Shown: positions 2,760 through 18,471 of the stretch, piece by piece | Layout of the letters: each line of letters opens with the position of its first letter | How positions within the stretch are numbered: the stretch's first letter is position 1 | Origin: Bacteroidota bacterium | Lineage (GTDB): Bacteria; Bacteroidota; Bacteroidia; Bacteroidales; FEN-979 | Direction: 5' to 3' | DNA length: 64,000 nt | Assembly (NCBI GenBank): GCA_026391735.1 | Contig: JAPLDL010000022.1 | Coordinates: 262,825 to 326,824 of the forward strand | Translations under genes and position numbers: made by a program | Notes under the pieces: model-generated | Seen by the model: only the letters and a program-made list of their open reading frames with translations | Database searches by the model: none | Told to the model about the DNA's origin: nothing

Positions 2760-3212
2760 ATGGATGGTAAATTCGATGAAGTTCAGCTTCTATTCATTGA
2801 ACGTTCCCTGGAATTGCACGGGGAAATGATCACGGATCTGCTCAGGGGTCAGATCGAGCAGAAACATTTGATTAAGAACGAAGATCTTCTGGATTCAATC
2901 GATTTCCAAGTGAGCAAATACGGCATTGATCCGGTTCTTCTGATTAGTTTTTTTGCCTATGGCCGCTTCATTGAAATCAATTGGTTTAAACGCTCGCAGA
3001 ATTCCCGCAAACTAATTGCCAATAGCAATCGCCTGCAGTGGAGTATGCGTGAAAACCGCAAAAGGACCAAAAAGAAAGATACCCGTTGGTATGCAAAGAC
3101 GGCCTATGGTTCAATCAATCATCTGATCGCAGTTCTGAGCAATGATTTTTCGGACAGCGAACGGGATTATTTAAAACAATTATTGGAGTTACGCTATGAG
3201 TCTAAAAATTGA
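2760..3212 (+). CDS. Hypothetical phage protein immediately upstream of the tape measure (possible tail assembly chaperone)
   Basis: 150-aa ORF that overlaps the tape measure start by 17 nt. Assignment is by position only. Confidence 0.45.
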   Translation: MDGKFDEVQLLFIERSLELHGEMITDLLRGQIEQKHLIKNEDLLDSIDFQVSKYGIDPVLLISFFAYGRFIEINWFKRSQNSRKLIANSNRLQWSMRENRKRTKKKDTRWYAKTAYGSINHLIAVLSNDFSDSERDYLKQLLELRYESKN

Positions 3213-6200
3213 TCGCCTGCAGCTGGAGATCATTATCAATAATGATCAGGCCCGAACTTCATTGAGAAATCTCAATGATGAAGCTCTCAGTATCCAGAAG
3301 TCCATGAAAAACATGGTCAAGGGAACGGATGAATGGATCCAGGCCACCAAACGACTATCCTCCATCAAGCAGCAAATGGATAGTATCTATGATTCCATAG
3401 GTATTGCGGGATTGTCCATCGCGGAGCTGAAAAAGAAACAGCAGGAATTCAATATGGTTCTTAACCAACTCCCGGCCAATTCACCCCAGTATGCAGCTTA
3501 TAAAAAGAACCTGGATGAGATCAATCTCCGGTTAAAGGAACTCAAAGGCAATGCCCAGGCGGCTATGCCTGCACTGGAAGAAGGGGGTCTGAGCGGTGCC
3601 TTTGCTAAAATATCCGGGTGGGCTCTAAAGATAGGGGCCGCATTTATGGCCTTAAGTGCCATCAAGGATTATTTTAAGGAAGGTATTGAAGCTGCGAAAG
3701 AACTCCAGGATATAGAATCACTATTACTGGAGAATCTTGATGGTCAGAAAGACGCTCAGCAGCAACTGATCGATTTGGCCAAGGAGAAGTCCAAGACTAC
3801 CCTGTATAAACGACAGGAAATCGAGGAAGCGGAGAATTTTCTGGCTATCCAGGCTAGAACGCCGGCTCAGATCAAAAAGACTATTGATGCGGCCATGCAA
3901 CTTTCGGTGGTTACCGGGAAAGATTTGATGGAATCTGTTCGCGATCTGGATGCTACGATGGAAGGAAAACTGGGCCGTGGACTAGGTAAACTGGCCCAGG
4001 AATTTCAAACTCTTTCCAAAGAACAACTCGCCCATGGCGATGTCATCGAATTGGTACGTCGAAAATATGCAGGCCTGGCCGAGGGTGAGATGAACACGAT
4101 CGAAGGGAAGGTGAATCTGCTGGTAAAAGCCTGGAATGGACTACGAAGAACGATCGGAGAAATGGTTCTTGGGCAGGGAAATATGTTTGGCGGGCTCATC
4201 CAGGGAACAACCGATCTTTTGAATTCATTTAAAAAACTTTTTGAGATTCCGGTATCTCAGAAAATTACCGAGGAAAAGGATGCCCTCAACAGCCTGGTGT
4301 TCCAGATTCAGGCCACCAATACCAATCAGACCGAACGTAACCGCCTGATTGAAGAATTGAGGGTTAAATATCCGGAGTTCCTGGGAAATCTTAAAAATGA
4401 AGATGTAACGAATGAGGTATTGGCCAAACATCTCGAGCAGGTGAATTACCAGTACATGGAAAAGATCCGCCTGGCTAAATCCGAAGAGACTTTGACGGCT
4501 ATGGCCGAAAAGGAATCCAAGGCTTCGAAAGAACTTGCCTCCACCGAGCAGGAACGTAACCAGATCCTGGCAAAATCCATGGACCTGTTATATCAGTCCA
4601 ATGCCGCAGAAGCTCGCCTGGTGGAACAGGCTCCGACACTGGATGCCAAGATCGAGCTGGTTAAGAAATATTGGGGCGCCGTGGGCGGTACCGGTGAAGC
4701 CTTTCTTATTGCTGCTGAGAAAGCCCGTCAGGCATCGGGGAAGATGAAACAAACCCAGGCTGATTTCTCCACCGCTTCCGTTAAGATTGCTGAAGATGCC
4801 ATTAATGGATCCTTGAATCTGACCAATAGCCTTGAAAATGTATCGGATCAGATTCTTCGAATTGGAGTTAAAACTCAAGATGAAAATCTTAAGTCAATTA
4901 TTCAAGCTGAAATCCAAGACAGGGCATATTTAGCCAAAATCGCAGATAAAAAGAAAAAAAGTCAAAAAGAAAAGGTGGACTGGACGGCTAAATCAGAAGC
5001 GGAGCTCAATCAGATCATTTCTCGCTCCCGTGAGGAAGGAGCCACCAACATTGACCGTACCCAAGCCCGCTTGGCTCAGGCGGAATTAAAACGCCGGGAT
5101 AAAATAGTAGAAGGAGTTGAGAAATATCAGGACCTGATGCGCGAAGTGACCGAAATGGAGAAAACCAACTTCGCCGATAAGCTATCCCAAACGCAGAAAG
5201 AGATCCAATCGGTCAATGACAAGTATAATACCGAAATCCGAAAGATCGAGGAATACCAGCAACATAATAAAAAGCAGCTTTCTCCCACCCAAAATAAAGA
5301 ACTTGATGATAATGTTGGCAAGCTTAAAATAGCCCGGGATGCCCAGACCAATCAGATTCTCGTTCAGGCTGAGCAGGATTTTGCCGATAAGATCAAACAG
5401 ATCCATGAAGCCCTTCGTGTGGGGCGCTTGTCCATCACCGATCGGGAGCTGTATGAGATCAATAAAAAATACGATGACCTGCAGAAAGAGATCCTCGATG
5501 CGATCCAGTACCGCTACGATCAGGAAGTCAAACAAGCCAATGGAAATGCTGAGCTGATTGCTCAGGCCGAAAAAAATAAAGCCGCAGAACTGATAAAAAT
5601 TCAGGGAGATATGTCCCTTTTGCAGCAGGCCCGGGATCAGGAAACTCAAAAAGCAACCCGGGATGGTCAACTCAAGTTTGATGATGACCTCAAATCCCTG
5701 CGATTAAAAGGCGAACAGGACCTGGCCAAAGGCAAGGAGAAGATCCAGGATGAGGTCAATGCCAAGTATCGTAAACTGCTGGATGAAAATGTCAATGATG
5801 AGCAGCGCACCCAGGAGATCAAGGCGCAAATGACTCAGGAATCCAACGAAAAGATTGAGCAATATCAAACCGAGCATCTGGCAAAAATGATCCAGAAATA
5901 TGCTCAGTACGCCAGTACTATTGTTAGTTCTCTCTCTGCATTGGAACAGGCATTCACGGCAAAAGAGAATGCAGAAGTTAAAAAGAATGAGGATTCCAAT
6001 AACAAGAAGAAAACTTCTTTAAAAGCGCAGTTGGATGCCGGCAAGATTACCCAGAAGAATTATGATGACCAGGTGGCCCAGATGGATACCGAACTGGATA
6101 AGAAAAAAGCCAAGATTGCCCATGATCAGGCGGTACGTCAGAAAGAATTATCCATTGTTCAGGCCATTATCAATACTGCACAGGGAATTACAGCTGCACT

Positions 6201-6741
6201 GACCCTTGAGCCGGCCGGAATGGCTTTAGCCATTATCGTTGGGTTATTGGGCGCGGCACAGATCGCCATGATCGCCTCGACCCCGGTTCCTGAAGCTGCC
6301 GAAGGCCGGTATGATGTCGTTGGGAAGAATTCAGGAAAGAAATATTCCAAAGTACCCTATGCGGGCAATTCACAGACCGGAATCTACGGGCAGCCTACCC
6401 TGATCAATGAGACTGGTGATGAAATTATCATCGATCCCTATACAACCAGGAACCTGCTAATGAATTATCCGGAAATAATTGCCGGAATCAATGCCGCCCG
6501 GGGAGTCCCTACCCGTTCAACGGGATCATATGGGGCGATGTCTTCCAGTCCATCATCGCCTGCAGCTGCATCCTCATCATCCGGAACAGGATCCATGATC
6601 AGTGATTTACATGATAGTATCAAGACCCTTAATGAACGCCTGGCAGGACCGATACAGAGTTATACCATCTGGAGCGAGACCGAGCTGCTAAATAAAAAAT
6701 TGGCATCGATAGAGAAAGATGTTTCAAAATCAGCTGCATGA
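3196..6741 (+). CDS. Tail tape measure protein
   Basis: 1181 aa, dominated by K/E/Q/A-rich coiled-coil-like sequence. Hydrophobic segments occur near residues 140-160 (AFAKISGWALKIGAAFMALSAI) and about 990-1030 (AALTLEPAGMALAIIVGLLGAAQIAMIA). It is the largest ORF of the tail module and lies between a chaperone-like ORF and the tail ORFs. Confidence 0.8.
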   Translation: MSLKIDRLQLEIIINNDQARTSLRNLNDEALSIQKSMKNMVKGTDEWIQATKRLSSIKQQMDSIYDSIGIAGLSIAELKKKQQEFNMVLNQLPANSPQYAAYKKNLDEINLRLKELKGNAQAAMPALEEGGLSGAFAKISGWALKIGAAFMALSAIKDYFKEGIEAAKELQDIESLLLENLDGQKDAQQQLIDLAKEKSKTTLYKRQEIEEAENFLAIQARTPAQIKKTIDAAMQLSVVTGKDLMESVRDLDATMEGKLGRGLGKLAQEFQTLSKEQLAHGDVIELVRRKYAGLAEGEMNTIEGKVNLLVKAWNGLRRTIGEMVLGQGNMFGGLIQGTTDLLNSFKKLFEIPVSQKITEEKDALNSLVFQIQATNTNQTERNRLIEELRVKYPEFLGNLKNEDVTNEVLAKHLEQVNYQYMEKIRLAKSEETLTAMAEKESKASKELASTEQERNQILAKSMDLLYQSNAAEARLVEQAPTLDAKIELVKKYWGAVGGTGEAFLIAAEKARQASGKMKQTQADFSTASVKIAEDAINGSLNLTNSLENVSDQILRIGVKTQDENLKSIIQAEIQDRAYLAKIADKKKKSQKEKVDWTAKSEAELNQIISRSREEGATNIDRTQARLAQAELKRRDKIVEGVEKYQDLMREVTEMEKTNFADKLSQTQKEIQSVNDKYNTEIRKIEEYQQHNKKQLSPTQNKELDDNVGKLKIARDAQTNQILVQAEQDFADKIKQIHEALRVGRLSITDRELYEINKKYDDLQKEILDAIQYRYDQEVKQANGNAELIAQAEKNKAAELIKIQGDMSLLQQARDQETQKATRDGQLKFDDDLKSLRLKGEQDLAKGKEKIQDEVNAKYRKLLDENVNDEQRTQEIKAQMTQESNEKIEQYQTEHLAKMIQKYAQYASTIVSSLSALEQAFTAKENAEVKKNEDSNNKKKTSLKAQLDAGKITQKNYDDQVAQMDTELDKKKAKIAHDQAVRQKELSIVQAIINTAQGITAALTLEPAGMALAIIVGLLGAAQIAMIASTPVPEAAEGRYDVVGKNSGKKYSKVPYAGNSQTGIYGQPTLINETGDEIIIDPYTTRNLLMNYPEIIAGINAARGVPTRSTGSYGAMSSSPSSPAAASSSSGTGSMISDLHDSIKTLNERLAGPIQSYTIWSETELLNKKLASIEKDVSKSAA

Positions 6742-6781
6742 TGTCCTTTAAAAAGTTTTTATGTAAGAATAAGTTTGCCCT

Positions 6782-8440
6782 ATGCATTTCGAAATAGTTC
6801 CACCGACCGTTGTATTTGCCGGTAATCCGATCCGATATCGGATTCACCTGGTGGATGGGGGAGGCCCACCTCCTGGTAAAAGTCTGATCGAAATTGTTTT
6901 CTCAGGCAAGGATACCCATGAGGATCATGCAGTCACTCTGTCTTTTTTGGGTGTTGAACGTACGTTTTCACTTAAAAGTTCTCCGGATGACGCATATTCC
7001 ATTCCCTCTGCAAACTCAGATGAAACAGTAGAAAACTGGGCTTACAGATTTTATACTGAACTTCAAAAAAACGGGGAACTTCTTAAGAATTATCAGATCA
7101 CATTAAGTGATGATAGTCTAACAATTAATCTTAGGGCTTATGAGAATGGATCTTCTTTTGATATGAGTGTTGTTTCCAATACCATAGAAGGGATGACCAT
7201 TAATGCATCCACCGGTGGGAGTGGATCCACTTCATATGATGGGGTAGCCGTGATGGTTCTGGATAAAGATGGCATATTGCTCGGGGAAGACGTCAAGCCG
7301 ATCAACGATACCAATTTCATCGATTATGAGATTTCGGAATATATCAACGCCTTGTTTGCCACCCTTACTCCGCCCAGGTTTATTTTGAGCGATTCCACGC
7401 ATGGCTATATTTATTTATATGTTGACCTGGTAAAGAAATACCGGGTTCTGGCCGGATATCATATTCCGGGCTTGGTTTACGTGAGTTTATACGATAATTA
7501 CCACTGGGCTATTTCCGGAGGATTGTCCCGTGAGGGCCTGATGGTATGGAACCAGGTGAGTGGTGGATTTTGGAATGATTCCAATAATAAAAAACGTTTT
7601 TTGACTTGGGGCCCACTGGTCAAGAAGACCTCACGTACCAATCATGAATCCTTGTATTTCTTTACTCAATATAGTGATGTGACCCGCTATAATGTAAAAG
7701 TAAAGGCTTATCTGGCCGATAAAAGTAGTACCACCTTCGAATTAGTTCACATGACCTATTCAGGACAATATGTGATCTTGGAGATGATGGTGGGTTACGG
7801 ACAAATTAGCATTGAAAGCCATACAGACAATCAGCCGGTCGTAAAATGGGATGTTTGGCTTGAGGATCAATATTCACGTATTCTGAGTGAAGTAAGGACC
7901 TTCCTGGTGGATGAAAAAGTGTATGAATTTCCCCGGGAATTTGTATTCCGTAATTCCTTTGCGGTGTATGATTATATCAGGTTTACCGGTAAAATTGAGA
8001 AGAACCTCGTACATGACAGGGAAACTACCCAGATCGATCGCAATGAAGTGGAAACGTTTTACAACACTCCGGAGTGGCAAACAAAGATTCTCGAGCAGCA
8101 GATCTATAAGGGATCCTCAGGATGGGTATCGCATAAAACCATGGATGTTCTTCGTGATATGATGCTTTCTCCGGAAGTGTATGAAATCGTTAATGAAAAG
8201 CCTCTCAGAATAAGCATTACAACCAAAAAAACGAGCAAATATCTCAAGGATGGTGAATACTTGTATAACCTGGATCTTGAATATCAACATGCTTACCAGG
8301 ATAATTTCTATTCTAATATCGAAGAACATAGTGCTCCTGATCCAATACCAGACCCTGATCCAGATCCCATGTCATGGGATTCTGAAGAAGTAACCTTTGA
8401 TAGTGAAGAAGTAACCTTTGATCAAACTTTAAAATTATGA
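6782..8440 (+). CDS. Phage tail-region structural protein (hypothetical)
   Basis: 552-aa ORF directly after the tape measure. The C-terminus carries a PDPIPDPDPDP tract and a duplicated SEEVTFD. ATGA overlap with the next ORF. Confidence 0.6.
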   Translation: MHFEIVPPTVVFAGNPIRYRIHLVDGGGPPPGKSLIEIVFSGKDTHEDHAVTLSFLGVERTFSLKSSPDDAYSIPSANSDETVENWAYRFYTELQKNGELLKNYQITLSDDSLTINLRAYENGSSFDMSVVSNTIEGMTINASTGGSGSTSYDGVAVMVLDKDGILLGEDVKPINDTNFIDYEISEYINALFATLTPPRFILSDSTHGYIYLYVDLVKKYRVLAGYHIPGLVYVSLYDNYHWAISGGLSREGLMVWNQVSGGFWNDSNNKKRFLTWGPLVKKTSRTNHESLYFFTQYSDVTRYNVKVKAYLADKSSTTFELVHMTYSGQYVILEMMVGYGQISIESHTDNQPVVKWDVWLEDQYSRILSEVRTFLVDEKVYEFPREFVFRNSFAVYDYIRFTGKIEKNLVHDRETTQIDRNEVETFYNTPEWQTKILEQQIYKGSSGWVSHKTMDVLRDMMLSPEVYEIVNEKPLRISITTKKTSKYLKDGEYLYNLDLEYQHAYQDNFYSNIEEHSAPDPIPDPDPDPMSWDSEEVTFDSEEVTFDQTLKL

Positions 8441-9342
8441 GTAAACAAACAATCTATCTTGGGGCGGTAGCCAATGATAAAACCGGAAACAAGCTTCGTG
8501 TAGGCGGGAATATGATCAATAGTAATTTTGATGAATTGTACTCGAGAAATCATGCCTGTTGCGGCAGTAAACAAGAGTTTCGCGACGCAATCATGGAATT
8601 TGCGGTTAAAGAACGGGCCTTGTTGGAGTTCTTTTATGTTTCTAAAATCATTGCAGGGGCCATCTCCCCTTATAATCAATACCTGAGAGTCTATGAAGTT
8701 GATATCAATAAATCGTCGAATTTAACCAGTGTGGGAACTCAGGTATTGAAATTCTATATCCAATCAATTCCATTGAATAGTCCGAAAACAAGTCCTGAAG
8801 TTGTTACCTTAACTGGTGCACTTGCTTCCCCTCCGACTGATTTTTTTGGAGAAATCTGTATTGACTGGAGTAAATTTATCCTGGGACAAACATATACCTG
8901 TGCAAATTGGCTTGAAGGAGGATTATATGTGGTGAATACGATAAAACCAGCATCAGATCCAGGAGGAGATCCCGGGCCAGGATTTGAGTTACCCTATGGA
9001 AGCGGAACCTCCAAATTTAACATCACCGAGGCTGCAGTTATCGATGGCTCATTTAATCTTTACCTGGCCAGTCTTACAATGGGCGAAATTTCACTTGCCT
9101 CAGCGGACGTAATCAAGGGAAAAATTGATTTAAAGAATATTTCCGGCGTGGAGATTACAATCAATTGCATTTTAATCCCACCGGTTGAATCAGGCCCGTC
9201 AACTCCCGCCTTGTTTGATGGATTATATCAGCAAATTACAGTAGCTGATAAAAAGCAGGTTTCGTTTGAATTGTATCATGTTGAGAGTCGTACATACATG
9301 ACGATTGTTTCGGGAGATTATACCGGAGTTGAAGAGAGATAA
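8437..9342 (+). CDS. Phage tail fibre-like structural protein (hypothetical)
   Basis: 301 aa. The N-terminus GAVANDKTGNKLRVGGNMINSNFDELY resembles the ND-TGD-LR...N.NF.ELY motif that I recall at N-termini of many phage fibre or tail proteins. This is unverified. Confidence 0.55.
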   Translation: MSKQTIYLGAVANDKTGNKLRVGGNMINSNFDELYSRNHACCGSKQEFRDAIMEFAVKERALLEFFYVSKIIAGAISPYNQYLRVYEVDINKSSNLTSVGTQVLKFYIQSIPLNSPKTSPEVVTLTGALASPPTDFFGEICIDWSKFILGQTYTCANWLEGGLYVVNTIKPASDPGGDPGPGFELPYGSGTSKFNITEAAVIDGSFNLYLASLTMGEISLASADVIKGKIDLKNISGVEITINCILIPPVESGPSTPALFDGLYQQITVADKKQVSFELYHVESRTYMTIVSGDYTGVEER

Positions 9343-9636: not shown

Positions 9637-11859
9637 ATGAAAACACATTTCGATGTACTTATCGGTGATATGGTGCGCCATGCGCATGATCCCGAAGATA
9701 TCACTGGATTGGCTGATTTGATGAAGGGCTTCCAGGGCGCCATCGATGCTTCAGCCGGAGGATCCGGAAACCCGATATCCCCCCCGGTAATTACCGTTTC
9801 CGGATGGTGGCTGATCACTAAAGGCGGATATATCCTGTTCAATTCCGTGCCCAATCTGTTTGAGGCAGGGGATATGCTGATTTATACGCATTCCAGCGGC
9901 TTATATTCCAGGGTGGATGCAAAGACCAACGATGCCCAGGTGGATATTACCTCGGTATTTACCAAACTGTTGAGTGGTTTGGTTACCCAAAAGGCCGTCA
10001 ATGAGCACCTGGATAAACTGGTGACTACTTCTGCCAGTGCTCCTTCTGTCACAAATGATTCATCCTCTGGCTATTTTGCCGGATCTTTTTGGCTCAGATC
10101 AGCAGGGGAGATTTATCAATGCCTGGATGCTTCGGTTGGCGCAGCGCAGTGGCTATTGGTTGGGACATCCGGTTTGTATAATGACATCGGCACAGCCGGC
10201 GAGATTGGATTTGGCGTTGGCATCTGCGGGCCAGGCAGTTTGCCCACCGGTTTGGTTCCCATCTCAGGTACCTTCGATAAAACCCATGCAAACTATGGGA
10301 ATTACCAGGTTGCGGTGGATGGATCAGAAATGGTCTTTGTCCCGCGTCACTGGATGCGCATCGGAGATAACCGCTCTTCGCTCTATGCTCTGTTTGGATC
10401 CAATGCAGTGGATGTGGCAAAGCTCTCTACGTTTGCCAGCGAAGCTGAAGCTAATGCCTTGGGGTATTTCCTGCCCCGTTGTTTCATTGACGGGGGACAG
10501 GTGCAGCCAGGCTATTTCGTTGACAAGTACAATGGATGGTCACTGACCAACTCAGATGGGGATGTGAACAATCCGCCTACCCGGGGTATTGCATCTAGCA
10601 AGAAGTATGGCAACCCAATGTCTTCGGACTCGGCAGGTCGTCAGACCCCGACCAATCCGACCTATCCCGGGGACTTCTCCAATGCCCGCAGCAATGGACA
10701 ATCTCCGGCTTATTATGCCATCGGGATGTTTGCCTGCGCCAAGAGTCGCGGTAATAATTTCGCCCCTACTTCGCTGTTTATCGAACGGAACCTGTTTTTC
10801 CTGGCCCTGGCCCAGCACGAGGCCTTGTATGCCAAGGTCAACGGCGGGACCATTACCCAGGGACAGGCCCAGAGTATTGCAGCCTGGTACCTGACCAGTG
10901 GCGTTTCGGCTCCCAGGGGAAATAATAATTACGGGGTGGATAATGACGATGCAACCATCTCCTTTGTCAAGCCTACCGATGGTTTCTGGGCAGTGAAATC
11001 ACCTACCGAAGCATGCCAGACAGGTTCTGCCAAGAAAGGTGGCCTGGATGCCATGGAATATTGCACCCATAACGGGCAAAAAAGTGGTGTCCAGGTTAAT
11101 GGAAACCAGTGGTTGTTTACCCAGGGCTTCACGACCATCACCGAAGGTGGACAGAATGCCGTGAGCATTACCCGCGCAGCTGAGTGTGTAGTGACCATTC
11201 CAAATGCCAGTGCCAGTAATGCAAATTATGCCAACGGAAAACGGGTATGGTTTGAAGGAAGTAATACATCGGAATGGAATGGTTTTTTCCAGTACAAGTT
11301 TTATATCATTTCAGACCTCACCGGCAATACCTTTAAGCTAAAGGATAAGAATGGTGCGTATATCAATACATCGGCTCTAAGCGCTGATTTTGATACTGCA
11401 GGAGGAAACTTCACGGTTCGCACCGGAAAGTTCTATGTCCTGAAGGAATCCGTTGCCCTGAAGAACATGCTTGGAGCTGCCGGTACCGGCAATGCCAACA
11501 ACTACTTCGAAAACCCTCAGAATTTCGACGAGGTGGATCCTATTGCCTTTATTGGAGGTTACGTCCAGGTTCTTGGAAATGGCTCAAACAGGGTCTTCTC
11601 AGGTAGCACGGATCGCACTTCTGAGGCCTATAAACTGCGCTCCTGCGGAATTCCGGTTGATGGAAATGCAGTAGGTGGCACTAACCTTATGGGCCAGGAT
11701 TATTTCTTAATATGGCTAGTAAATCAGTGCGTGCCGTTGTCCGGCGGCTATTGGGGCGGCGGTAGTAGTGCCGGCGCGGGCGCGGCCGGTTTCGGCTGTA
11801 GTTCAGGTGGCAACGGCCGTCTCATCTCGGCGCGGTCCTGCCTTTATTTGGTTGGATAG
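9637..11859 (+). CDS. DGR target (variable) protein, probable receptor-binding tail protein
   Basis: 740 aa. The last roughly 40 codons are the VR that aligns to the TR with adenine-only differences. The C-terminal sequence GGYWGGGSSAGAGAAGF...ISARS has the GG.W...AG layout typical of DGR-diversified C-type-lectin-fold ends. Confidence 0.9.
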   Translation: MKTHFDVLIGDMVRHAHDPEDITGLADLMKGFQGAIDASAGGSGNPISPPVITVSGWWLITKGGYILFNSVPNLFEAGDMLIYTHSSGLYSRVDAKTNDAQVDITSVFTKLLSGLVTQKAVNEHLDKLVTTSASAPSVTNDSSSGYFAGSFWLRSAGEIYQCLDASVGAAQWLLVGTSGLYNDIGTAGEIGFGVGICGPGSLPTGLVPISGTFDKTHANYGNYQVAVDGSEMVFVPRHWMRIGDNRSSLYALFGSNAVDVAKLSTFASEAEANALGYFLPRCFIDGGQVQPGYFVDKYNGWSLTNSDGDVNNPPTRGIASSKKYGNPMSSDSAGRQTPTNPTYPGDFSNARSNGQSPAYYAIGMFACAKSRGNNFAPTSLFIERNLFFLALAQHEALYAKVNGGTITQGQAQSIAAWYLTSGVSAPRGNNNYGVDNDDATISFVKPTDGFWAVKSPTEACQTGSAKKGGLDAMEYCTHNGQKSGVQVNGNQWLFTQGFTTITEGGQNAVSITRAAECVVTIPNASASNANYANGKRVWFEGSNTSEWNGFFQYKFYIISDLTGNTFKLKDKNGAYINTSALSADFDTAGGNFTVRTGKFYVLKESVALKNMLGAAGTGNANNYFENPQNFDEVDPIAFIGGYVQVLGNGSNRVFSGSTDRTSEAYKLRSCGIPVDGNAVGGTNLMGQDYFLIWLVNQCVPLSGGYWGGGSSAGAGAAGFGCSSGGNGRLISARSCLYLVG
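11727..11843 (+). repeat. DGR variable repeat (VR)
   Basis: Ungapped alignment to 12322-12438 (offset 595). There are 21 mismatches between 11749 and 11822, and all correspond to adenines in the TR copy. Confidence 0.92.
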
Positions 11860-11961
11860 ATGTAGCAGCAAGCGATAGCGAGCTGCCTGATGATTGACGT
11901 TCTTTGAAAGTTTGAAAAATCTTTTACCTTTGTTCTTGGTCTTGGTAATAAGGCCGGCGCA

Positions 11962-12297
11962 ATGAGTGAAAATTTATTGATCCAAAAGAAGATTGTCGAC
12001 ATGATCAAATACAATCACATCATGTTGCAACAGCTTCCAAAACACGAAAAATTTGTTTTGGGGGAAAGGATCCGCACCCTGGGATATCAACTTCTTGAGT
12101 TGGCCATCGCGGCCAACAAAAAATATATCAAGAAGACGACCTTCTCGGAGTTCGACGTCACTCATGAGTCGCTTCGCCAGCTGATCAACGTAGCTTATGA
12201 GCTGCAGTATATTGATGCAAAAAAGCATCGTGTTGCTCAGCTCCATGTTGATGAAGTAGGACGGCTTCTTGGAGCCTGGATCAAAAGTGAAACATAA
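11962..12297 (+). CDS. avd: Accessory variability determinant (Avd), four-helix-bundle protein
   Basis: 111-aa helical basic protein located between the VR-bearing gene and the TR, the canonical avd position. The N-terminus (IVDMIKYNHIMLQQLPKHEKFVLGERIR) is typical of the Avd / 23S-IVS four-helix-bundle family as I recall it. Confidence 0.75.
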   Translation: MSENLLIQKKIVDMIKYNHIMLQQLPKHEKFVLGERIRTLGYQLLELAIAANKKYIKKTTFSEFDVTHESLRQLINVAYELQYIDAKKHRVAQLHVDEVGRLLGAWIKSET

Positions 12298-12321
12298 TGT
12301 TGAAGGGTGATGCTGGTACTT

Positions 12322-12438
12322 GTGCGTGCCGTTGTCCGGCGGCAATTGGAACAACAATAGTAATGCCGGCGCGGGCGCGGCCAATTTCAACTATAATTCA
12401 GGTAACAACAACCGAAACATCTCGGCGCGGTCCTGACT
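12322..12438 (+). repeat. DGR template repeat (TR)
   Basis: Non-coding copy of the VR that is rich in AAY triplets. In the VR frame it reads VPLSGGNWNNNSNAGAGAANFNYNSGNNNRNISARS. Confidence 0.92.
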
Positions 12439-12602
12439 CTGATTAACATTCGTTCTGGAGCGGTGGTCTTACGGGATCACCGAGTGAACATCAAATCAAA
12501 GGGAGCATTATCCTTGATCCTTCGGGGTCTAAAATTTATCGGGGTGGGGCATTCTGGTACGCTTGAAAAAGCTGAAGGTCTGCCTCACTCTTTTTCTCTT
12601 AG
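12322..12602 (+). ncRNA. DGR RNA (TR plus downstream spacer)
   Basis: The 164-nt gap between the TR and the RT start holds two UNCG-capped hairpins: 12461-12482 (9 bp, loop uacg) and 12516-12529 (5 bp, loop uucg). Its position matches the Sp region of the BPP-1 DGR RNA. Confidence 0.55.
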
Positions 12603-13619
12603 ATGCAAAGACACGGGGATATATATCGAAGATGGTGCACGTATGAGGCGATGCTTGCAGCATGGAAGGAAGTTCGTAAAGATAAAACCTATCATTATTC
12701 GGTTTTAAAGTACGAGCAGAATCTGGCTGTTAATCTTTCTCACCTTCTGGATTCAATCCTTGACGAATCCTACCGGGTAAGACCAACACGCAACTTCATC
12801 ATTTTCGAACCAAAGGAGCGGTTTATCGAAGCTCCTCACCTGGAAGATCGCATTGTGCAGCATGCTATCACCGATGTGATCCGTCCGATGATCGAAGCGC
12901 ATTTCATCGATCAGTCCTACGCCTGCAGAGTCGGCAAAGGAACCCACGCTTCGAATGACCTGGTTAAAAGGTATCTGGCTGAGTATAAGAATGAAGGGTA
13001 TTATCTTCGGATAGATTGCTCAAAGTTCTTTTACTCGATTTCTCATCAGAGGATAGAGCAGAAGCTTCGCCGGATCATCAAATGCGAAAAAACCTTAGAG
13101 TTTCTTAAAATGTTTTATAATAATAGCGAAGGTAAAGGATTACCGCTTGGACAGGTAACAAGCCAATTAGAGGCCAATCTTGCATTAAACGACGTGGATC
13201 ATTTCATCAAGCGTGAGCTCAAGGTAAAACACTATGTGCGTTACATGGATGACATGATCCTTCTGCACTCATCAAAAGAGTTTCTACGGGATGCTTTCAC
13301 CAGGATCAAGGAGAAGATTGCCCAGGAGCATTTGTCAACCAATAATAAAAGCAAGATCGGCAAGATCAGCGAGGGGATTGATTTCGTTGGTTACCGTACC
13401 TGGTACAATCGCAGGGTGATTCGAAAAAAATCACTTTTTCGGATTAAACGAAAGTTAAAGCAGGATGCCAATCTGAACCGGTTGGCTTCTTTCCTGAGTC
13501 ATTCAATGAGAACCGAGAGTCTGGTTTACGTGATCAAGCAAATATTACAGGTGGCCCCTAATCAGCGCCCCTTTATAGAAAAATGGTATCGAAAACATTT
13601 TAAACAAAAAAAGTCATGA
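12603..13619 (+). CDS. DGR reverse transcriptase
   Basis: 338 aa with RT motifs YYLRIDCSKFF (motif A), LPLGQVTSQLEANL (the DGR-type I/LGxxxSQ motif) and VRYMDDMILL (YMDD). It lies immediately downstream of the TR. Confidence 0.92.
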   Translation: MQRHGDIYRRWCTYEAMLAAWKEVRKDKTYHYSVLKYEQNLAVNLSHLLDSILDESYRVRPTRNFIIFEPKERFIEAPHLEDRIVQHAITDVIRPMIEAHFIDQSYACRVGKGTHASNDLVKRYLAEYKNEGYYLRIDCSKFFYSISHQRIEQKLRRIIKCEKTLEFLKMFYNNSEGKGLPLGQVTSQLEANLALNDVDHFIKRELKVKHYVRYMDDMILLHSSKEFLRDAFTRIKEKIAQEHLSTNNKSKIGKISEGIDFVGYRTWYNRRVIRKKSLFRIKRKLKQDANLNRLASFLSHSMRTESLVYVIKQILQVAPNQRPFIEKWYRKHFKQKKS

Positions 13620-14053
13620 AATATTTTATTAGCAAAGTTGTTACAACCTCTGAGGTAACTCTGGGTTTTGTTGCACCTCATCAGCCTTTGGCCGATGGTC
13701 CGCAAATCGTTCATTATGCCTTTGATCGCATTGGCGATGAAGAGCTTCATGGGTTAGATTACCAGGGCGAACTGGATGTCCCCTCCATTTTGGCCCTGCA
13801 GCACCAGGAGTGCCAGGTCGAAGAAGTCACCTTTGCCAGTGTCGAGACACGCCTGAAGGCTTGCCGCTTCTCCCGTGAGATCAATGAAGAGGTGGTCGCT
13901 CAGATCCGCAGCCGGTACTCGATCGATGACGAACTCAAGATTATGAAACAGGATCCCACCAGTGGAGATTATGTGGCCATGATGGCCTGGATCGACAGCT
14001 GCCGCTCGGATGGAAATGCCAAGAAAGTGGCCCTTGGATTACTTCAGGCATAA
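13616..14053 (+). CDS. Hypothetical phage protein
   Basis: 145-aa ORF with an ATGA overlap with the RT gene. The C-terminal RSRYSIDDELKIMKQ...YVAMMAWIDSCRSDGNAKK is faintly reminiscent of XkdW / fibre-assembly-type proteins. This is unverified. Confidence 0.5.
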   Translation: MKYFISKVVTTSEVTLGFVAPHQPLADGPQIVHYAFDRIGDEELHGLDYQGELDVPSILALQHQECQVEEVTFASVETRLKACRFSREINEEVVAQIRSRYSIDDELKIMKQDPTSGDYVAMMAWIDSCRSDGNAKKVALGLLQA

Positions 14054-14056
14054 ACC

Positions 14057-15730
14057 ATGCTTTCATTACGAGTCAATAATTCTGTGTTAGACCTGGGAGA
14101 TACCATCAGTATCTCCTGGGAACTTCGCTCGCCCATGTTTTTTGATGCCGGCAGCCGGAGTTATCCCTTTCAGTTTCCTTCGACCCTGAATAATCGAAAG
14201 ATTCTTGGATTCCGTCACCGAATTGAAGGGACCAACAGTATATGGGATGAATTGCCCTGTGCCATTGCATTCAATAATATTGACTTGTTCCATGGGATTT
14301 TAAGGTTTACCATTGCCAACAAGGATCATTACGAGGCCGTGGTGTACCAGAGGGAAGGGGATCTGAATTACATGGCACAGAAGATGATGCTCAGTGATTT
14401 TAATTACGGAGGGTTTGATTATGGGACCGATGTGCTTGGATTGGGTGTGGCCAATGGAATTTATGCCCAGGATCCATCCCTATGGTATTATCCTAATCAG
14501 AAGATGGCCTGGCCGATGATAGCCAATGAAAATTATTTCGATCCCCCGGTTGAGGATGAAGAGCGTAAATATTATAATTACCGTACGCCTCCGTCTTATC
14601 CTATGCTTCGCCATGTTGATCCAGCCAAACCATATATTAATATTCCCATGGTATTTCTTCGCCATGCTTTTTCTACGGTGATTACCGGATTGGGTTATTC
14701 GCTCAATGACTTACTCTTTACCTCTCATGCCGATTTGAATAAATTGATCATCTATAATTCGCTCTCCAATAATAATCTGTGCCAGGAGTTTTCTTATACG
14801 ATGAAGAATTGTTATCTCAATCTTCATATGCCACGGATCACTGTAGCGGATTTCTTTTGTGATATTGAAAAATATTTTAATGCCAGAATGTTTGTCCAGG
14901 ACCTGGAGAAGTCAATTACCATGGTGCCCTTGGACAAGATCGTGGATGGCATTGGGGATGTGATCAATTTTGACCGGGGATTGATCAGCCGGTCAATTGA
15001 GCTTTTCGATCAGGATCCTATCACTGGATTTCAGTATGCCATGGACCTGGACACGGCGGATTCGCATTTAAAACTCTGGACGGACCAGAGTGAGTATTTC
15101 AATAAATGGATGAAACCACCGGTTGATCTGATCAGTGCGCTTCCCGTTTGGCCTTATTCTATTCCTGGCGATGTTCGTTATGTCGTTGAAAATGGTAAAT
15201 TTTATCGTTTTCTGTTGGATAAAACCTGGTATCAGGATCCGGCGATCGCTGAAGTGGATATTGCACATTATTATTATAAGAAGTATGGTGATGCTATTTC
15301 CATTCCGCTTTCCTCGCTCAAATGTGCATATCCGGCCCTGGGATCGTACGTGATGACTGATTGTGGGAATCAGCAAAAGGATTGGGCGGATATCAAATTT
15401 CGGATCCTGTTCGTGGATCAATTTATTGTTCCTGGATCATCGCCTATAAAATATATTCCCCTGGGAACGGATCATACTTCCAATTTCACCTTATGGATGC
15501 AGGGAACCAATAATATGTTTGACAAGTTTTTTAAGAAAACCTGTGATTTTTATCTTTCAACTAAACCGGTCAAGGTCCAGCGGATCATGACCCTTGAGGA
15601 GATCAAAGGCATTGATTTTACGCGGAAATACATGATGGATTCGGTCAAGTATCTGCTTCGCCGCGTTCAACTTACCTTCAAAAAAGATCGGATTTCCCCT
15701 GCTGTAATGGAATGCCAGACGGTGAATTAA
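14057..15730 (+). CDS. Hypothetical phage structural protein
   Basis: 557-aa ORF, 3 nt after the previous gene. It is the last gene of the + strand late block. Confidence 0.55.
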   Translation: MLSLRVNNSVLDLGDTISISWELRSPMFFDAGSRSYPFQFPSTLNNRKILGFRHRIEGTNSIWDELPCAIAFNNIDLFHGILRFTIANKDHYEAVVYQREGDLNYMAQKMMLSDFNYGGFDYGTDVLGLGVANGIYAQDPSLWYYPNQKMAWPMIANENYFDPPVEDEERKYYNYRTPPSYPMLRHVDPAKPYINIPMVFLRHAFSTVITGLGYSLNDLLFTSHADLNKLIIYNSLSNNNLCQEFSYTMKNCYLNLHMPRITVADFFCDIEKYFNARMFVQDLEKSITMVPLDKIVDGIGDVINFDRGLISRSIELFDQDPITGFQYAMDLDTADSHLKLWTDQSEYFNKWMKPPVDLISALPVWPYSIPGDVRYVVENGKFYRFLLDKTWYQDPAIAEVDIAHYYYKKYGDAISIPLSSLKCAYPALGSYVMTDCGNQQKDWADIKFRILFVDQFIVPGSSPIKYIPLGTDHTSNFTLWMQGTNNMFDKFFKKTCDFYLSTKPVKVQRIMTLEEIKGIDFTRKYMMDSVKYLLRRVQLTFKKDRISPAVMECQTVN

Positions 15731-15909: not shown

Positions 15910-16158
15910 ATGTCGCAATTATCGTTTGAAGAGATCTTCGCAAAGTTCAAAGAAAATTTTCCGCCTGTTACCTCGCCTGATCAGGCCACCCTGTCGCTAA
16001 CCACCCAGGAAATCTGTGAGATGATCCTTAAACTGGATGAATCGGCTTTGATTCCCCAGGAGGGGATGTTTAGTTTTTTGAAAGCTCAGGGCTATACGTT
16101 TCACCCAAAGGAATACAATGAGACGGTGACGTTTTATTGGCTTGTAAAATCCTTATAA
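15910..16158 (+). CDS. Small hypothetical protein in the integration module
   Basis: 82-aa acidic ORF convergent with the integrase gene, overlapping it by 6 nt. No DNA-binding motif recognised. Confidence 0.4.
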   Translation: MSQLSFEEIFAKFKENFPPVTSPDQATLSLTTQEICEMILKLDESALIPQEGMFSFLKAQGYTFHPKEYNETVTFYWLVKSL

Positions 16159-17271
16159 GCGAGGAAAACTGTTGATAAATTCATCACTTACCGTTCGTCG
16201 GAAGCGCTCCAGATATTTCTGTGTCTCATCCAGGGAGCTGTGGCGGTTCTGCAACTGCAGATCCCGTGTGTTGGCACCCGCTTTCAGCGCCAATCCGTTA
16301 CCGGTATGTTTTAAGGCATAAATTGTCTTGCTTATGCCAAAAGTCTTTGCGAATTCTCTCCACTGTTCAAAAATTCTGTTAGCCGATGCCTCCTTGGGAT
16401 TACGTTTTAAATGATTCCCAAAAACGTAATAATTCATTGGAAAGTGCAGATCAAGTTTCTTTATTGCCTGTTTTAACTGAGGGGGGACGATAATAGTTTC
16501 TGTCTTACGGTTTTTGGTGATCTCTCCTCCCAGAGTAAGCTGATCATCAAGGTATATCAGGTGGCTGACCTTTAGGCGAACAATCTCCTGGGGGCGTATA
16601 AAGCAGGTAAAGACCATCAGGGCGATCACGTAAAGGTCATAATTGTAAGAGGGAAGTTGTTCGGAAATGATTCTGAGTTCTTCTTTGGTCAGTGCATTGA
16701 TGGCTGTTTCTTCGGTAGGAAGTTCCTTTATTAAAGCGAAGGGATTGACCTCAATATATTGACGGGCGATCACGAAATTGAAAAATGTACGCACGGCCTG
16801 CAGTATATTATTATATGTACGGTTGGATCGTTTCTTTTCTCCCAGCACATGATCCATATAGGCTTGGGCATGGGTGTAGGCGAAGGACTCCACCTCGATG
16901 TTTACCAGGTGAGATTTTTCAAGGTAGGCTTTAAAGTGCTTCAGGTATGATTTATAACTACAATAGGACCGATTGCGCAGCGTGGTCTTTTTGATCTTTA
17001 GGAATTCATCGATCGTAAGGACCAGCGGTGAGAGGCTTCGGTTTTTCTGCACAAAGGGGTTGAACCCCTTTCGCAGTTTAAGGTTGATCTCTCTGATCAA
17101 AGCCTTTCCACGTTCGTAGCGCTGGGCTCGGGTAAGAAGTTTTTCAGAGATCCAGATCCGGAATCTTACAAATTTTCCGGTTTCCCCGTCCTTGAAATAA
17201 TAAAAAACGAACCACCTCTGGGTCATATCCCCATCGGCATCGAAGAGTTTTACGGTCTTGAAGTTGCTCAT
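16153..17271 (-). CDS. Tyrosine recombinase / phage integrase
   Basis: 372 aa. The C-terminal catalytic region has LKHTGNGLAL ... NRHSSLDETQKYL, the H-x-x-(R/G) ... H ... Y layout of Bacteroidota-type site-specific integrases. It lies adjacent to a tRNA 3' end. Confidence 0.85.
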   Translation of the reverse strand: MSNFKTVKLFDADGDMTQRWFVFYYFKDGETGKFVRFRIWISEKLLTRAQRYERGKALIREINLKLRKGFNPFVQKNRSLSPLVLTIDEFLKIKKTTLRNRSYCSYKSYLKHFKAYLEKSHLVNIEVESFAYTHAQAYMDHVLGEKKRSNRTYNNILQAVRTFFNFVIARQYIEVNPFALIKELPTEETAINALTKEELRIISEQLPSYNYDLYVIALMVFTCFIRPQEIVRLKVSHLIYLDDQLTLGGEITKNRKTETIIVPPQLKQAIKKLDLHFPMNYYVFGNHLKRNPKEASANRIFEQWREFAKTFGISKTIYALKHTGNGLALKAGANTRDLQLQNRHSSLDETQKYLERFRRTVSDEFINSFPRL

Positions 17272-17402
17272 AGAAGTTGGAATTTTTGCATCAATCCAAC
17301 AAATCCTATGTTTTCGCTGTCAAAACCCTTTGTCTCAGTTTGTCTCAAACCGAACTGGCAAGAGTCGGAAACCCTTGCCAGTACTGAGATGTTTGATTTT
17401 AG

Positions 17403-17474
<72 letters not shown>

Positions 17475-17528
17475 ATATATTTTCGTACCTTTGTCGTTTG
17501 TAACGCGGTATATTGAGGTTTCGCGCTG

Positions 17529-17536
17529 CAAAGATA
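17529..17536 (-). promoter_or_regulatory. Possible Bacteroidota -7 box (TATCTTTG) for the tRNA gene
   Basis: The minus strand reads TATCTTTG (TAnnTTTG consensus) about 55 nt upstream of tRNA position 1. Confidence 0.3.
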
Positions 17537-17574
17537 GGGTTATTTTACGGCATCTCAAAATTTATAGAAAATTT

Positions 17575-18471
17575 ATGGCTCATAAAGCCGGTTATATTAC
17601 AATCCTGGGTTATCCTAATGTCGGGAAATCAACCCTGATGAACGCAGTGGTAGGCGAAAAACTTTCAGGTATTACGCCAAAAGCGCAAACCACCCGGCAC
17701 CGTATTATTGGAATACTGAACGATGAAAATTTCCAAATGGTCTTTTCAGATACTCCAGGCATCCTTACACCCAAATACAAGCTCCACCAGGCAATGGTTT
17801 CTGCCATCAGCTCCTCTTTGTCCGACGCCGACATCATCCTGCTTGTCACAGAACCCGGTCAGAAATTCACCCATGAAGAGATACTGCAAAGAATCACAAC
17901 TTCAGATATTCCTGTTATCGTGCTGATCAATAAAATTGATACCATCGACCAAATTAAACTGGAAAAGGAAGTAGACCATTGGGCTAAACTACTGCCAAAA
18001 GCAGAGATCCTACCTGTTTCAGCGCTTCACCAGTCGAACCTTGACTTGCTGAAGACACGCCTTGTCAAATTGCTGCCACAACATCCGCCCTTTTATGATA
18101 AAGATGAACTCACCGACCGGAATGAACGCTTTTTCGTGTCGGAGATCATACGTGAAAAGATCCTGATGAATTATTCACAGGAAATACCCTATTCGGTCGA
18201 AGTTGCCATAGACTCATTCAAGGTGGATGAAGCGCTTATTCGCATCAGGGCGATAATATTTATTGCAAGGGAATCACAGAAAGCAATCATACTTGGTCAC
18301 CAGGGAAAGTCCATCAAGAAACTGGGTACCGAAGCCCGCCTTTCCATTGAAGAATTCCTTGGGCGGCATGTATTCCTCGAACTGCATGTAAAGGTCTCTA
18401 AGGACTGGAGGGAGGATGAACTGCAGCTGAAAAGATTCGGGTATAATTTGGGTGAGGATAAGGAATTGTGA
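17575..18471 (+). CDS. era: GTPase Era
   Basis: [23 protein letters not shown] (G1), DTPG (G3), NKID (G4) and a C-terminal KH-like region. The start is set at ATG 17575 because the longer track ORF runs through the tRNA gene. Confidence 0.9.
   Translation: MAHKAGYITILGYPNVGKSTLMNAVVGEKLSGITPKAQTTRHRIIGILNDENFQMVFSDTPGILTPKYKLHQAMVSAISSSLSDADIILLVTEPGQKFTHEEILQRITTSDIPVIVLINKIDTIDQIKLEKEVDHWAKLLPKAEILPVSALHQSNLDLLKTRLVKLLPQHPPFYDKDELTDRNERFFVSEIIREKILMNYSQEIPYSVEVAIDSFKVDEALIRIRAIIFIARESQKAIILGHQGKSIKKLGTEARLSIEEFLGRHVFLELHVKVSKDWREDELQLKRFGYNLGEDKEL

Follow-up and report, generated by a model that had tools for sequence, protein, structure and literature searches.

A probable complete diversity-generating retroelement in the tail module of a prophage from a Bacteroidetes metagenome-assembled genome

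The DNA analysed here is a 64,000-nucleotide stretch (hereafter the window; positions 262,825 to 326,824 of the forward strand of contig JAPLDL010000022.1, GenBank assembly GCA_026391735.1, Bacteroidota bacterium). It almost certainly carries a complete, canonical diversity-generating retroelement (DGR), situated in the tail module of a phage integrated in a Bacteroidetes metagenome-assembled genome (MAG). The order of its parts is a target gene ending in the variable repeat (VR), avd, the template repeat (TR) and a reverse transcriptase (RT) gene, which is the gene order of the DGR of Bordetella phage BPP-1 (mtd-avd-TR-brt). DGRs are a well-known system with tens of thousands of known members, and phages of this phylum carry many of them; this member is unannotated in its source record. 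An original prediction, made from the sequence by a model, had proposed a complete DGR with the order target-avd-TR-RT, and all of its parts could be identified. They are listed here by their positions in the window, together with the ends of VR involved in the putative initiation of mutagenic homing (IMH).

9637..11859, forward strand: DGR target gene, 740 aa, with VR at its 3' end (open reading frame and fold model)
11727..11840, forward strand: VR, coding for residues 698-735, with diversified sites at 11749-11822
11823..11845, forward strand: putative IMH-like 3' end of VR, made of the 18-nt GC-rich core CATCTCGGCGCGGTCCTG and then the VR-specific CCTTT
11865..11886, forward strand: predicted hairpin/cruciform element (covariation, alignment A3)
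11962..12297, forward strand: avd (accessory variability determinant), 111 aa (Pfam, NCBIfam and PHROG matches)
12322..12438, forward strand: TR, a non-coding, VR-like repeat
12439..12602, forward strand: predicted structured TR-RT spacer RNA (Sp), RT-14-like, 164 nt (Rfam match and covariation)
12603..13619, forward strand: DGR RT gene, 338 aa (bRT match and signature motifs)

The repeat pair carries the adenine-specific signature of the element. VR (11727-11843) and TR (12322-12438) align without gaps over 117 nt at an offset of 595, and they are the top direct repeat in a repeat search of the window. Up to the shared TCCTG, which ends at 11840, there are 21 mismatches, and the TR base is adenine in 21/21; opposite these adenines VR has G 17 times, T three times and C once. 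The 114 nt of TR up to G12435 contain 29 adenines, 21 of which are changed in VR; the other 85 positions are identical in the two copies. With 29 adenines per 114 nt, the probability that all 21 mismatches fall on adenines is ~3e-13. Realignment thus bore out the gapless offset and the adenine-only mismatches of the original prediction, without uncovering any non-adenine mismatch that it might have overlooked, and its in-frame readings of both repeats agree with the translation of the open reading frame (ORF).

A 22nd mismatch lies at 11841, directly 3' of TCCTG, where VR has C and TR has A. Since the same C/A pair is found at this position in all 15 related loci (described below), it is a fixed distinction between IMH in VR and its counterpart IMH* in TR, and no product of mutagenesis. 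When the whole window was scanned on both strands with TR, ignoring the adenine positions, no second VR was found; the scan yielded this VR/TR pair alone, and the element therefore appears to have a single target.

The changes in VR affect the first two bases of AAY codons, with the sole third-position change at 11820. In the VR frame TR contains 12 AAY codons, in keeping with the AAY-rich TRs that the original prediction cited as established knowledge. Substitution of adenines cannot create a stop codon in any of the 17 TR codons that contain them. The theoretical repertoire amounts to ~2.9e17 DNA variants and 8.3e15 protein variants, and the codons that can vary, at most 15 including the 12 AAY codons, fall within the last 43 residues of the target.

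The 111-aa ORF that had been noticed between VR and TR (11962-12297) encodes Avd, as judged from Pfam bAvd (98.6 bits, cut-off 40), the NCBIfam equivalog DivGenRetAVD ('diversity-generating retroelement protein Avd'; 95.8 bits, cut-off 80) and PHROG 3206 ('Avd protein of DGR'; 119 bits). The best solved-structure match of the RT is the bRT of BPP-1 (8ub7_A, deposited together with Avd; 174 bits, E 5e-50, residues 2-286), followed by group II and retron-type RT structures at 60 bits or less. Against phrog_1423, the PHROG family 'Reverse transcriptase', it scores 331 bits. Among the PADLOC models, a generic RT model comes top with 150 bits, and the defence RT (DRT) classes reach at most 89 bits.

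Both RT motifs of the original prediction are present, YMDD at residues 214-217 (13242-13253) and LGQVTSQ at residues 182-188 (13146-13166). The signature of DGR RTs is [I/V/L]GxxxSQ, whereas most retroviral, non-long-terminal-repeat retrotransposon and group II RTs have QGxxxSP (PMC7826257). The equivalent of bRT Arg74 is also kept, inside EPKERF. These comparisons support a grouping with DGR RTs, and not with the group II intron, retron or Abi RTs that had been named as the alternative. There is no DGR RT family among the NCBIfam matches of the RT. Neither the exact Avd sequence nor the exact RT sequence is on record in public assemblies, and an RT query against GTDB genomes gave no confirmed relative.

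The target protein is identical to NCBI 'hypothetical protein NTU51_10650 [Bacteroidetes bacterium]', which comes from a MAG. Its AlphaFold2 (AF2) model, built from 65 homologues, has a mean predicted local distance difference test score (pLDDT) of 79 and a predicted template-modelling score of 0.77, with high confidence for residues 180-740. In the model an N-terminal anchor region (residues 1-180) precedes a large receptor-binding region (residues ~181-740) that resembles C-type lectins and the formylglycine-generating enzyme (FGE) and has a beta-barrel inserted. The best fold match in the PDB is TaqVP, the variable protein of a Thermus aquaticus DGR (5vf4; E 6e-10, probability 1.0, 535 aligned columns). 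Weaker local matches of the model to E1 FCCH domains, together with the annotation of many homologues as PF16190, indicate the inserted beta-barrel.

Viral structures in BFVD that match the target include a sulfatase-modifying-factor (FGE)-like protein as well as tail fibre and tail collar fibre proteins, and some of those annotated as tail fibres come from crAss-like phages. The one PHROG match, phrog_20912, is of unknown function. A C-type-lectin/FGE-like fold, which the original prediction had suggested looking for, is thus what the model resembles, both in its best match to a DGR variable protein and in its FGE-like BFVD match. Going by the TaqVP match, the VR residues are probably exposed, and the lectin/FGE-like domain most likely serves a tail fibre or receptor-binding protein as its ligand-binding face.

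The ends of the two repeats differ in a way known from other DGRs. VR and TR share the same GC-rich 18-nt core, CATCTCGGCGCGGTCCTG. After this core VR continues with CCTTT and TR with ACTCT, so that the IMH*-like end of TR reads GACTCT (12435-12440). The boundary, G/C-CT in VR as against G/A-CT in TR, is kept in 15/15 related loci. An IMH/IMH* arrangement of the kind described in PMC5758913 fits these ends, and we putatively assign them as IMH and IMH*.

Only a minority of DGRs have a hairpin downstream of VR that is absent after TR. The candidate hairpin found here is placed 21 nt past the end of the VR homology and 6 nt past the stop codon of the target gene. Its outer stem of 5 bp (GCAGC/GCTGC) is separated by tandem purine mismatches from an inner stem of 2 bp, which is capped by a GATA tetraloop. 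The tandem mismatches are G.A/A.G in most relatives, whose loops (GATA, GGTA and, in locus L023, GGCA) all fit 5'-GRNA. Across the 10 loci of alignment A3, 94% of cells are paired and compensatory changes occur at 6/8 pairs; none of 500 shuffles reached this level of pairing, and slid registers likewise stayed far below it. The fold of the whole region 11820-11960 has a z-score of 0, and it is covariation, not folding energy, that supports the predicted hairpin. Hairpins of phage DGRs have a GRNA loop, lie 4-34 bp from VR and are needed for target recognition (PMC3240598); the distance between VR and the hairpin here is inside that range. We also considered the hairpin as an intrinsic terminator and rejected this, as the downstream T-run is missing. 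A search for promoters and terminators in 11700-13700 gave nothing over the shuffled background.

The spacer between TR and the RT gene also appears to be structured. On the RT strand, positions 12447-12590 match the full RT-14 model of Rfam (RF02921, 1-144/144) with 42.0 bits and E 1.5e-4, the gathering score being 48.1. The homologous spacer of locus L021 (7022-7157) scores 56 bits, which is over the gathering score, and a search at the gathering threshold finds RT-14 in this locus only. Rfam searches of five whole relatives at E <=0.01 gave no match, a consequence of the inflated E-values in a larger search space.

In alignment A4, which covers 15 loci, compensatory changes are found at 21 of the 30 predicted pairs. 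One predicted helix joins 12440-12444 (TGATT, directly 3' of TR) with 12494-12498 (AATCA), and the AAGGGAG motif that follows it has a core, AGGGA, that is invariant in the 15 loci. The spacer is best described as RT-14-like, in that its score lies under the gathering threshold and its structure is independently backed by covariation. Of this series of motifs, RT-10 is the one in the BPP-1 spacer, and a DGR role of the others was only speculated on (PMC5737381, Weinberg et al. 2017). The loci described here tie RT-14, previously an orphan motif, to a DGR. The spacer of BPP-1, 144 nt long, folds back onto the TR end and primes the cDNA from Sp A56 (PMC6182149); by analogy, the priming nucleotide here may lie near 12498-12499.

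We infer, again by analogy, that the priming and homing steps follow those of the Bordetella phage system. A transcript made up of the end of avd, TR and the spacer would fold, with the spacer pairing with the sequence just 3' of TR. A complex of RT and Avd would then prime from the spacer RNA and reverse-transcribe TR, accurately opposite C, G and U and promiscuously opposite A. The resulting cDNA would replace VR, with the GC-rich core of IMH, the CCTTT specific to VR and the GRNA-loop hairpin downstream as guides. TR itself, with its ACTCT end and without a hairpin, would stay unchanged. The benefit to the phage would presumably be a switching of host range.

The same DGR layout is carried by 15 related loci. 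In these the VR/TR mismatches fall solely, or in four loci (L004, L009, L014 and L018) almost solely, on TR adenines. The TRs of the window and of locus L002, whose targets are 75% identical, differ at 12 positions, and at 12/12 of them VR has the base of its own TR; TR-to-VR transfer must therefore have taken place after the two lineages split. Variation among homologues of the target is concentrated in the same region. When homologues are clustered at 90% identity, 22-70% of the variable positions in each of eight clusters lie in the C-terminal 45 residues, which make up ~6% of the protein. These positions have 2.4-5.3 alleles per site as against ~2.0 elsewhere, and they are set in a fixed W...AG.GA...R...S.R scaffold. 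A blastn search with the 3,983-nt cassette against 50,697 deposited phage records gave no match. The one further contig with this element, from an independent assembly of the same sample (L001, a 5.6-kb Logan contig of SRR20698651), contains an identical target gene and VR; it stops inside avd, 225 nt past the target stop codon and upstream of TR.

Several results weigh against a functioning DGR that diversifies a tail fibre. On the side of the target, the protein lacks a sequence-level family (no match in Pfam, NCBIfam, PADLOC or PDB sequences), and its role as a tail fibre is drawn from synteny and fold resemblance only. The TaqVP match has a template-modelling score of only 0.55 on the target and a root-mean-square deviation of 14 A, the modest score being due to large insertions. 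On the side of diversification, the protein cluster of the target has a single member, with no variant of the exact element. Two VR pattern scans of JGI metagenomes (with N at the adenine positions) gave no match, and one VR pattern scan of IMG/VR returned only the already known L004 contig, which is 84% identical. That the exact element is currently active in this genome is something we infer. To these points come the RT-14 score of the spacer, which falls short of the gathering score, and an excess of A-to-G changes in VR (17 of 21).

One alternative is that the DGR is real and the diversified protein is not a fibre for the host receptor, but an adhesin of the virion or cell surface for some non-host ligand; a switch of host range would then be the wrong benefit to assume. 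No sequence family makes the target a tail fibre, and pilus-related adhesins are mentioned among the DGR targets of Bacteroides in a preprint (bioRxiv 10.1101/2024.11.15.621889). However, the target gene lies amid baseplate-like and conserved tail-module genes, after the tape measure and a gp9/10-like gene. Its BFVD matches include proteins annotated as tail fibre and tail collar fibre, and its first 120 residues show covariation with the phage backbone, which would be expected of a baseplate anchor. We therefore regard an adhesin of this kind as improbable.

Still more doubtful is that the DGR is complete but silent or decaying, with VR as the frozen product of past homing. Population variants of the exact element were indeed not found, and the glycine-rich VR, with its preponderance of A-to-G changes, could be one variant that was selected and then fixed. 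Yet all ORFs are intact, with the catalytic and signature motifs present, and drift after inactivation should have added some mismatches at non-adenine positions, where there are 0/85. VR also tracks its own TR at lineage-specific substitutions, and close relatives are clearly diversifying. Finally, we can dismiss the reading in which the RT comes from a group II intron, retron or defence system, the repeat of 117 nt being a duplication without connection to it: group_II_RT_mat is the best NCBIfam match of the RT, but with 129 bits it is far under the cut-off of 300, and the reading is ruled out by the bRT score compared with those of other RT types, LGQVTSQ instead of QGxxxSP, the adjoining Avd equivalog and the adenine-only repeat pair.

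The spectrum of substitutions differs from that of BPP-1, whose bRT mostly misincorporates dATP (giving A-to-T); the substitutions here favour A-to-G. In locus L002 (VR 7627-7739), 18 of the 19 changes are A-to-G, while the share over the 15 loci is 53%, and that decoded from protein variants inside clusters is ~43%. The VR of the window is unusually rich in glycine codons. The excess may reflect selection on glycine-rich loops or an intrinsic bias of the RT. Perhaps the RTs of this lineage of phage DGRs favour dCTP opposite template adenines, unlike the bRT of BPP-1, although we consider this rather unlikely. If this were true, the accessible repertoire would be tilted towards codons for Gly, Asp and Ser.

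Comparison among relatives suggests that the cassette moves as a unit. Five IMG/VR contigs (L007, L008, L019, L020 and L024) carry a target homologue followed directly by a homologue of the 145-aa protein encoded after the RT, and lack avd, TR and RT within 4 kb. These DGR-less relatives imply that the cassette has been gained or lost as a block, and that the 145-aa gene is tied to the fibre gene and not the DGR. Locus L028 shares 78-94% identity with the window in its backbone genes (tape measure 88%, 557-aa protein 90%), and 83% in target residues 1-120. In the module itself, identity is 41% for target residues 181-740, 74% for Avd and 64% for the RT. L004 and L002 have the reverse pattern, with modules 75-90% identical to that of the window and backbones at 32-60%. 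On these sequence comparisons, the receptor-binding region (residues 181-740), avd, TR and RT appear to have been exchanged jointly between phage backbones, with one probable recombination junction inside the fibre gene, past residue ~120-180.

Apart from the gene order, the element shares many features with the DGR of BPP-1. In both, VR is at the C-terminus of a tail protein, TR is AAY-rich, an identical GC-rich IMH core is followed by VR- or TR-specific bases, and VR is followed by a hairpin whose tetraloop is of the GRNA type. Both have a structured TR-RT spacer of ~150 nt (144 nt in BPP-1, PMC6182149; 164 nt here), a small, helical Avd, and an RT of ~330 aa with [I/V/L]GxxxSQ and the Arg74 equivalent. 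There are also clear differences. The 740-aa target has no sequence similarity to Mtd, and it has a far larger lectin-like fold that contains an inserted beta-barrel and comes nearest to TaqVP. The BPP-1 hairpin is a continuous 8-bp GC stem, whereas the stem here is broken by tandem purine (mostly G.A) mismatches. The spacer RNA is RT-14-like, while that of BPP-1 is RT-10 (PMC5737381), and the two Avd proteins match only weakly in sequence (E 0.9).

TaqVP, the best structural match of the target, shares only 12% sequence identity with it and is chromosomal, whereas the target is phage-borne. The protein here is ~2x as long and differs from TaqVP in its N-terminal anchor region and its inserted E1_FCCH-like beta-barrel. 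Of the same phylum are Hankyphage and other Bacteroides phages and prophages, which are likewise temperate and DGR-bearing (PMC6199706); in the abstract of that paper a tail-fibre target is stated for BPP-1 only. Phages and prophages of this phylum are well documented as carriers of DGRs (PMC6199706, PMC5758913, PMC8144416).

The element does not change the understanding of DGRs. What is gained is annotation; a 'hypothetical protein' of a Bacteroidetes MAG becomes the probable hypervariable receptor-binding protein of a prophage, and avd, TR, the spacer RNA, RT, IMH and the hairpin are all located to the base. More is learnt from comparing the 15 loci than from this one element, as the set yields covariation-backed structures for both the VR-proximal hairpin and the TR-spacer RNA.

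The genes around the cassette, and the end of the prophage that falls within the window, are as follows.

3196..6741, forward strand: tape measure gene (PHROG, E 1e-15)
6782..8440, forward strand: gene for a 552-aa protein of the upstream tail module
8437..9342, forward strand: gene for a 301-aa protein with a T4 gp9/gp10-like N-terminus (Pfam T4_gp9_10_N)
13616..14053, forward strand: gene for a 145-aa protein, overlapping the RT stop codon; next to the target in DGR-less relatives
14057..15730, forward strand: gene for a 557-aa protein, tentatively baseplate-hub-like
16153..17271, reverse strand: tyrosine integrase gene, at the prophage end
17402..17474, reverse strand: tRNA-Met, at the prophage end

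The element sits in a prophage integrated beside tRNA-Met, because tail genes are followed by an integrase, then tRNA-Met and then host genes (era, der, a gene for an S4-domain protein, a TonB-domain gene and pdxJ). The left end of the prophage falls outside the window. This agrees with the prophage tail-module setting of the original prediction, given the tape measure gene, the gp9/10-like baseplate gene, the integrase and the tRNA-Met with its neighbouring host genes. Its further claim of structural genes on both sides held upstream (tape measure and gp9/10-like genes) and is less firm downstream, where the 145-aa and 557-aa proteins have no family; its assignment to a Bacteroidota phage stands with the NCBI name of the source MAG, from which the taxon is taken.

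The upstream tail module (3196-9342) has PHROG matches to baseplate and tail fibre connector proteins, and an endolysin-like gene also lies upstream of the cassette. The 301-aa gene has no counterpart in L028 or L002, where the homologue of the 552-aa gene is followed by an 82-aa gene and then the target; it is probably an extra baseplate or fibre-connector gene of this phage.

Downstream, the 145-aa protein has no family match in Pfam or PHROG and is possibly a fibre-associated or assembly protein. The 557-aa protein likewise has no match in these two databases. Its AF2 model has a pLDDT of only 59, and the top fold matches are all phage baseplate or hub proteins (best 3cdd, E 8e-4), which is suggestive of a resemblance to the Mu gp44-type baseplate hub. 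Homologues 85-90% identical to this protein are found on contigs whose targets are only ~45% identical.

At the right end of the prophage, the 3' end of tRNA-Met faces the integrase, as is expected of an attachment site. The maximal era ORF (17308-18471) runs across tRNA-Met, which is on the other strand. In the Era GTPase the Pfam domains start at residue 97, and its true start is therefore probably downstream of the tRNA.

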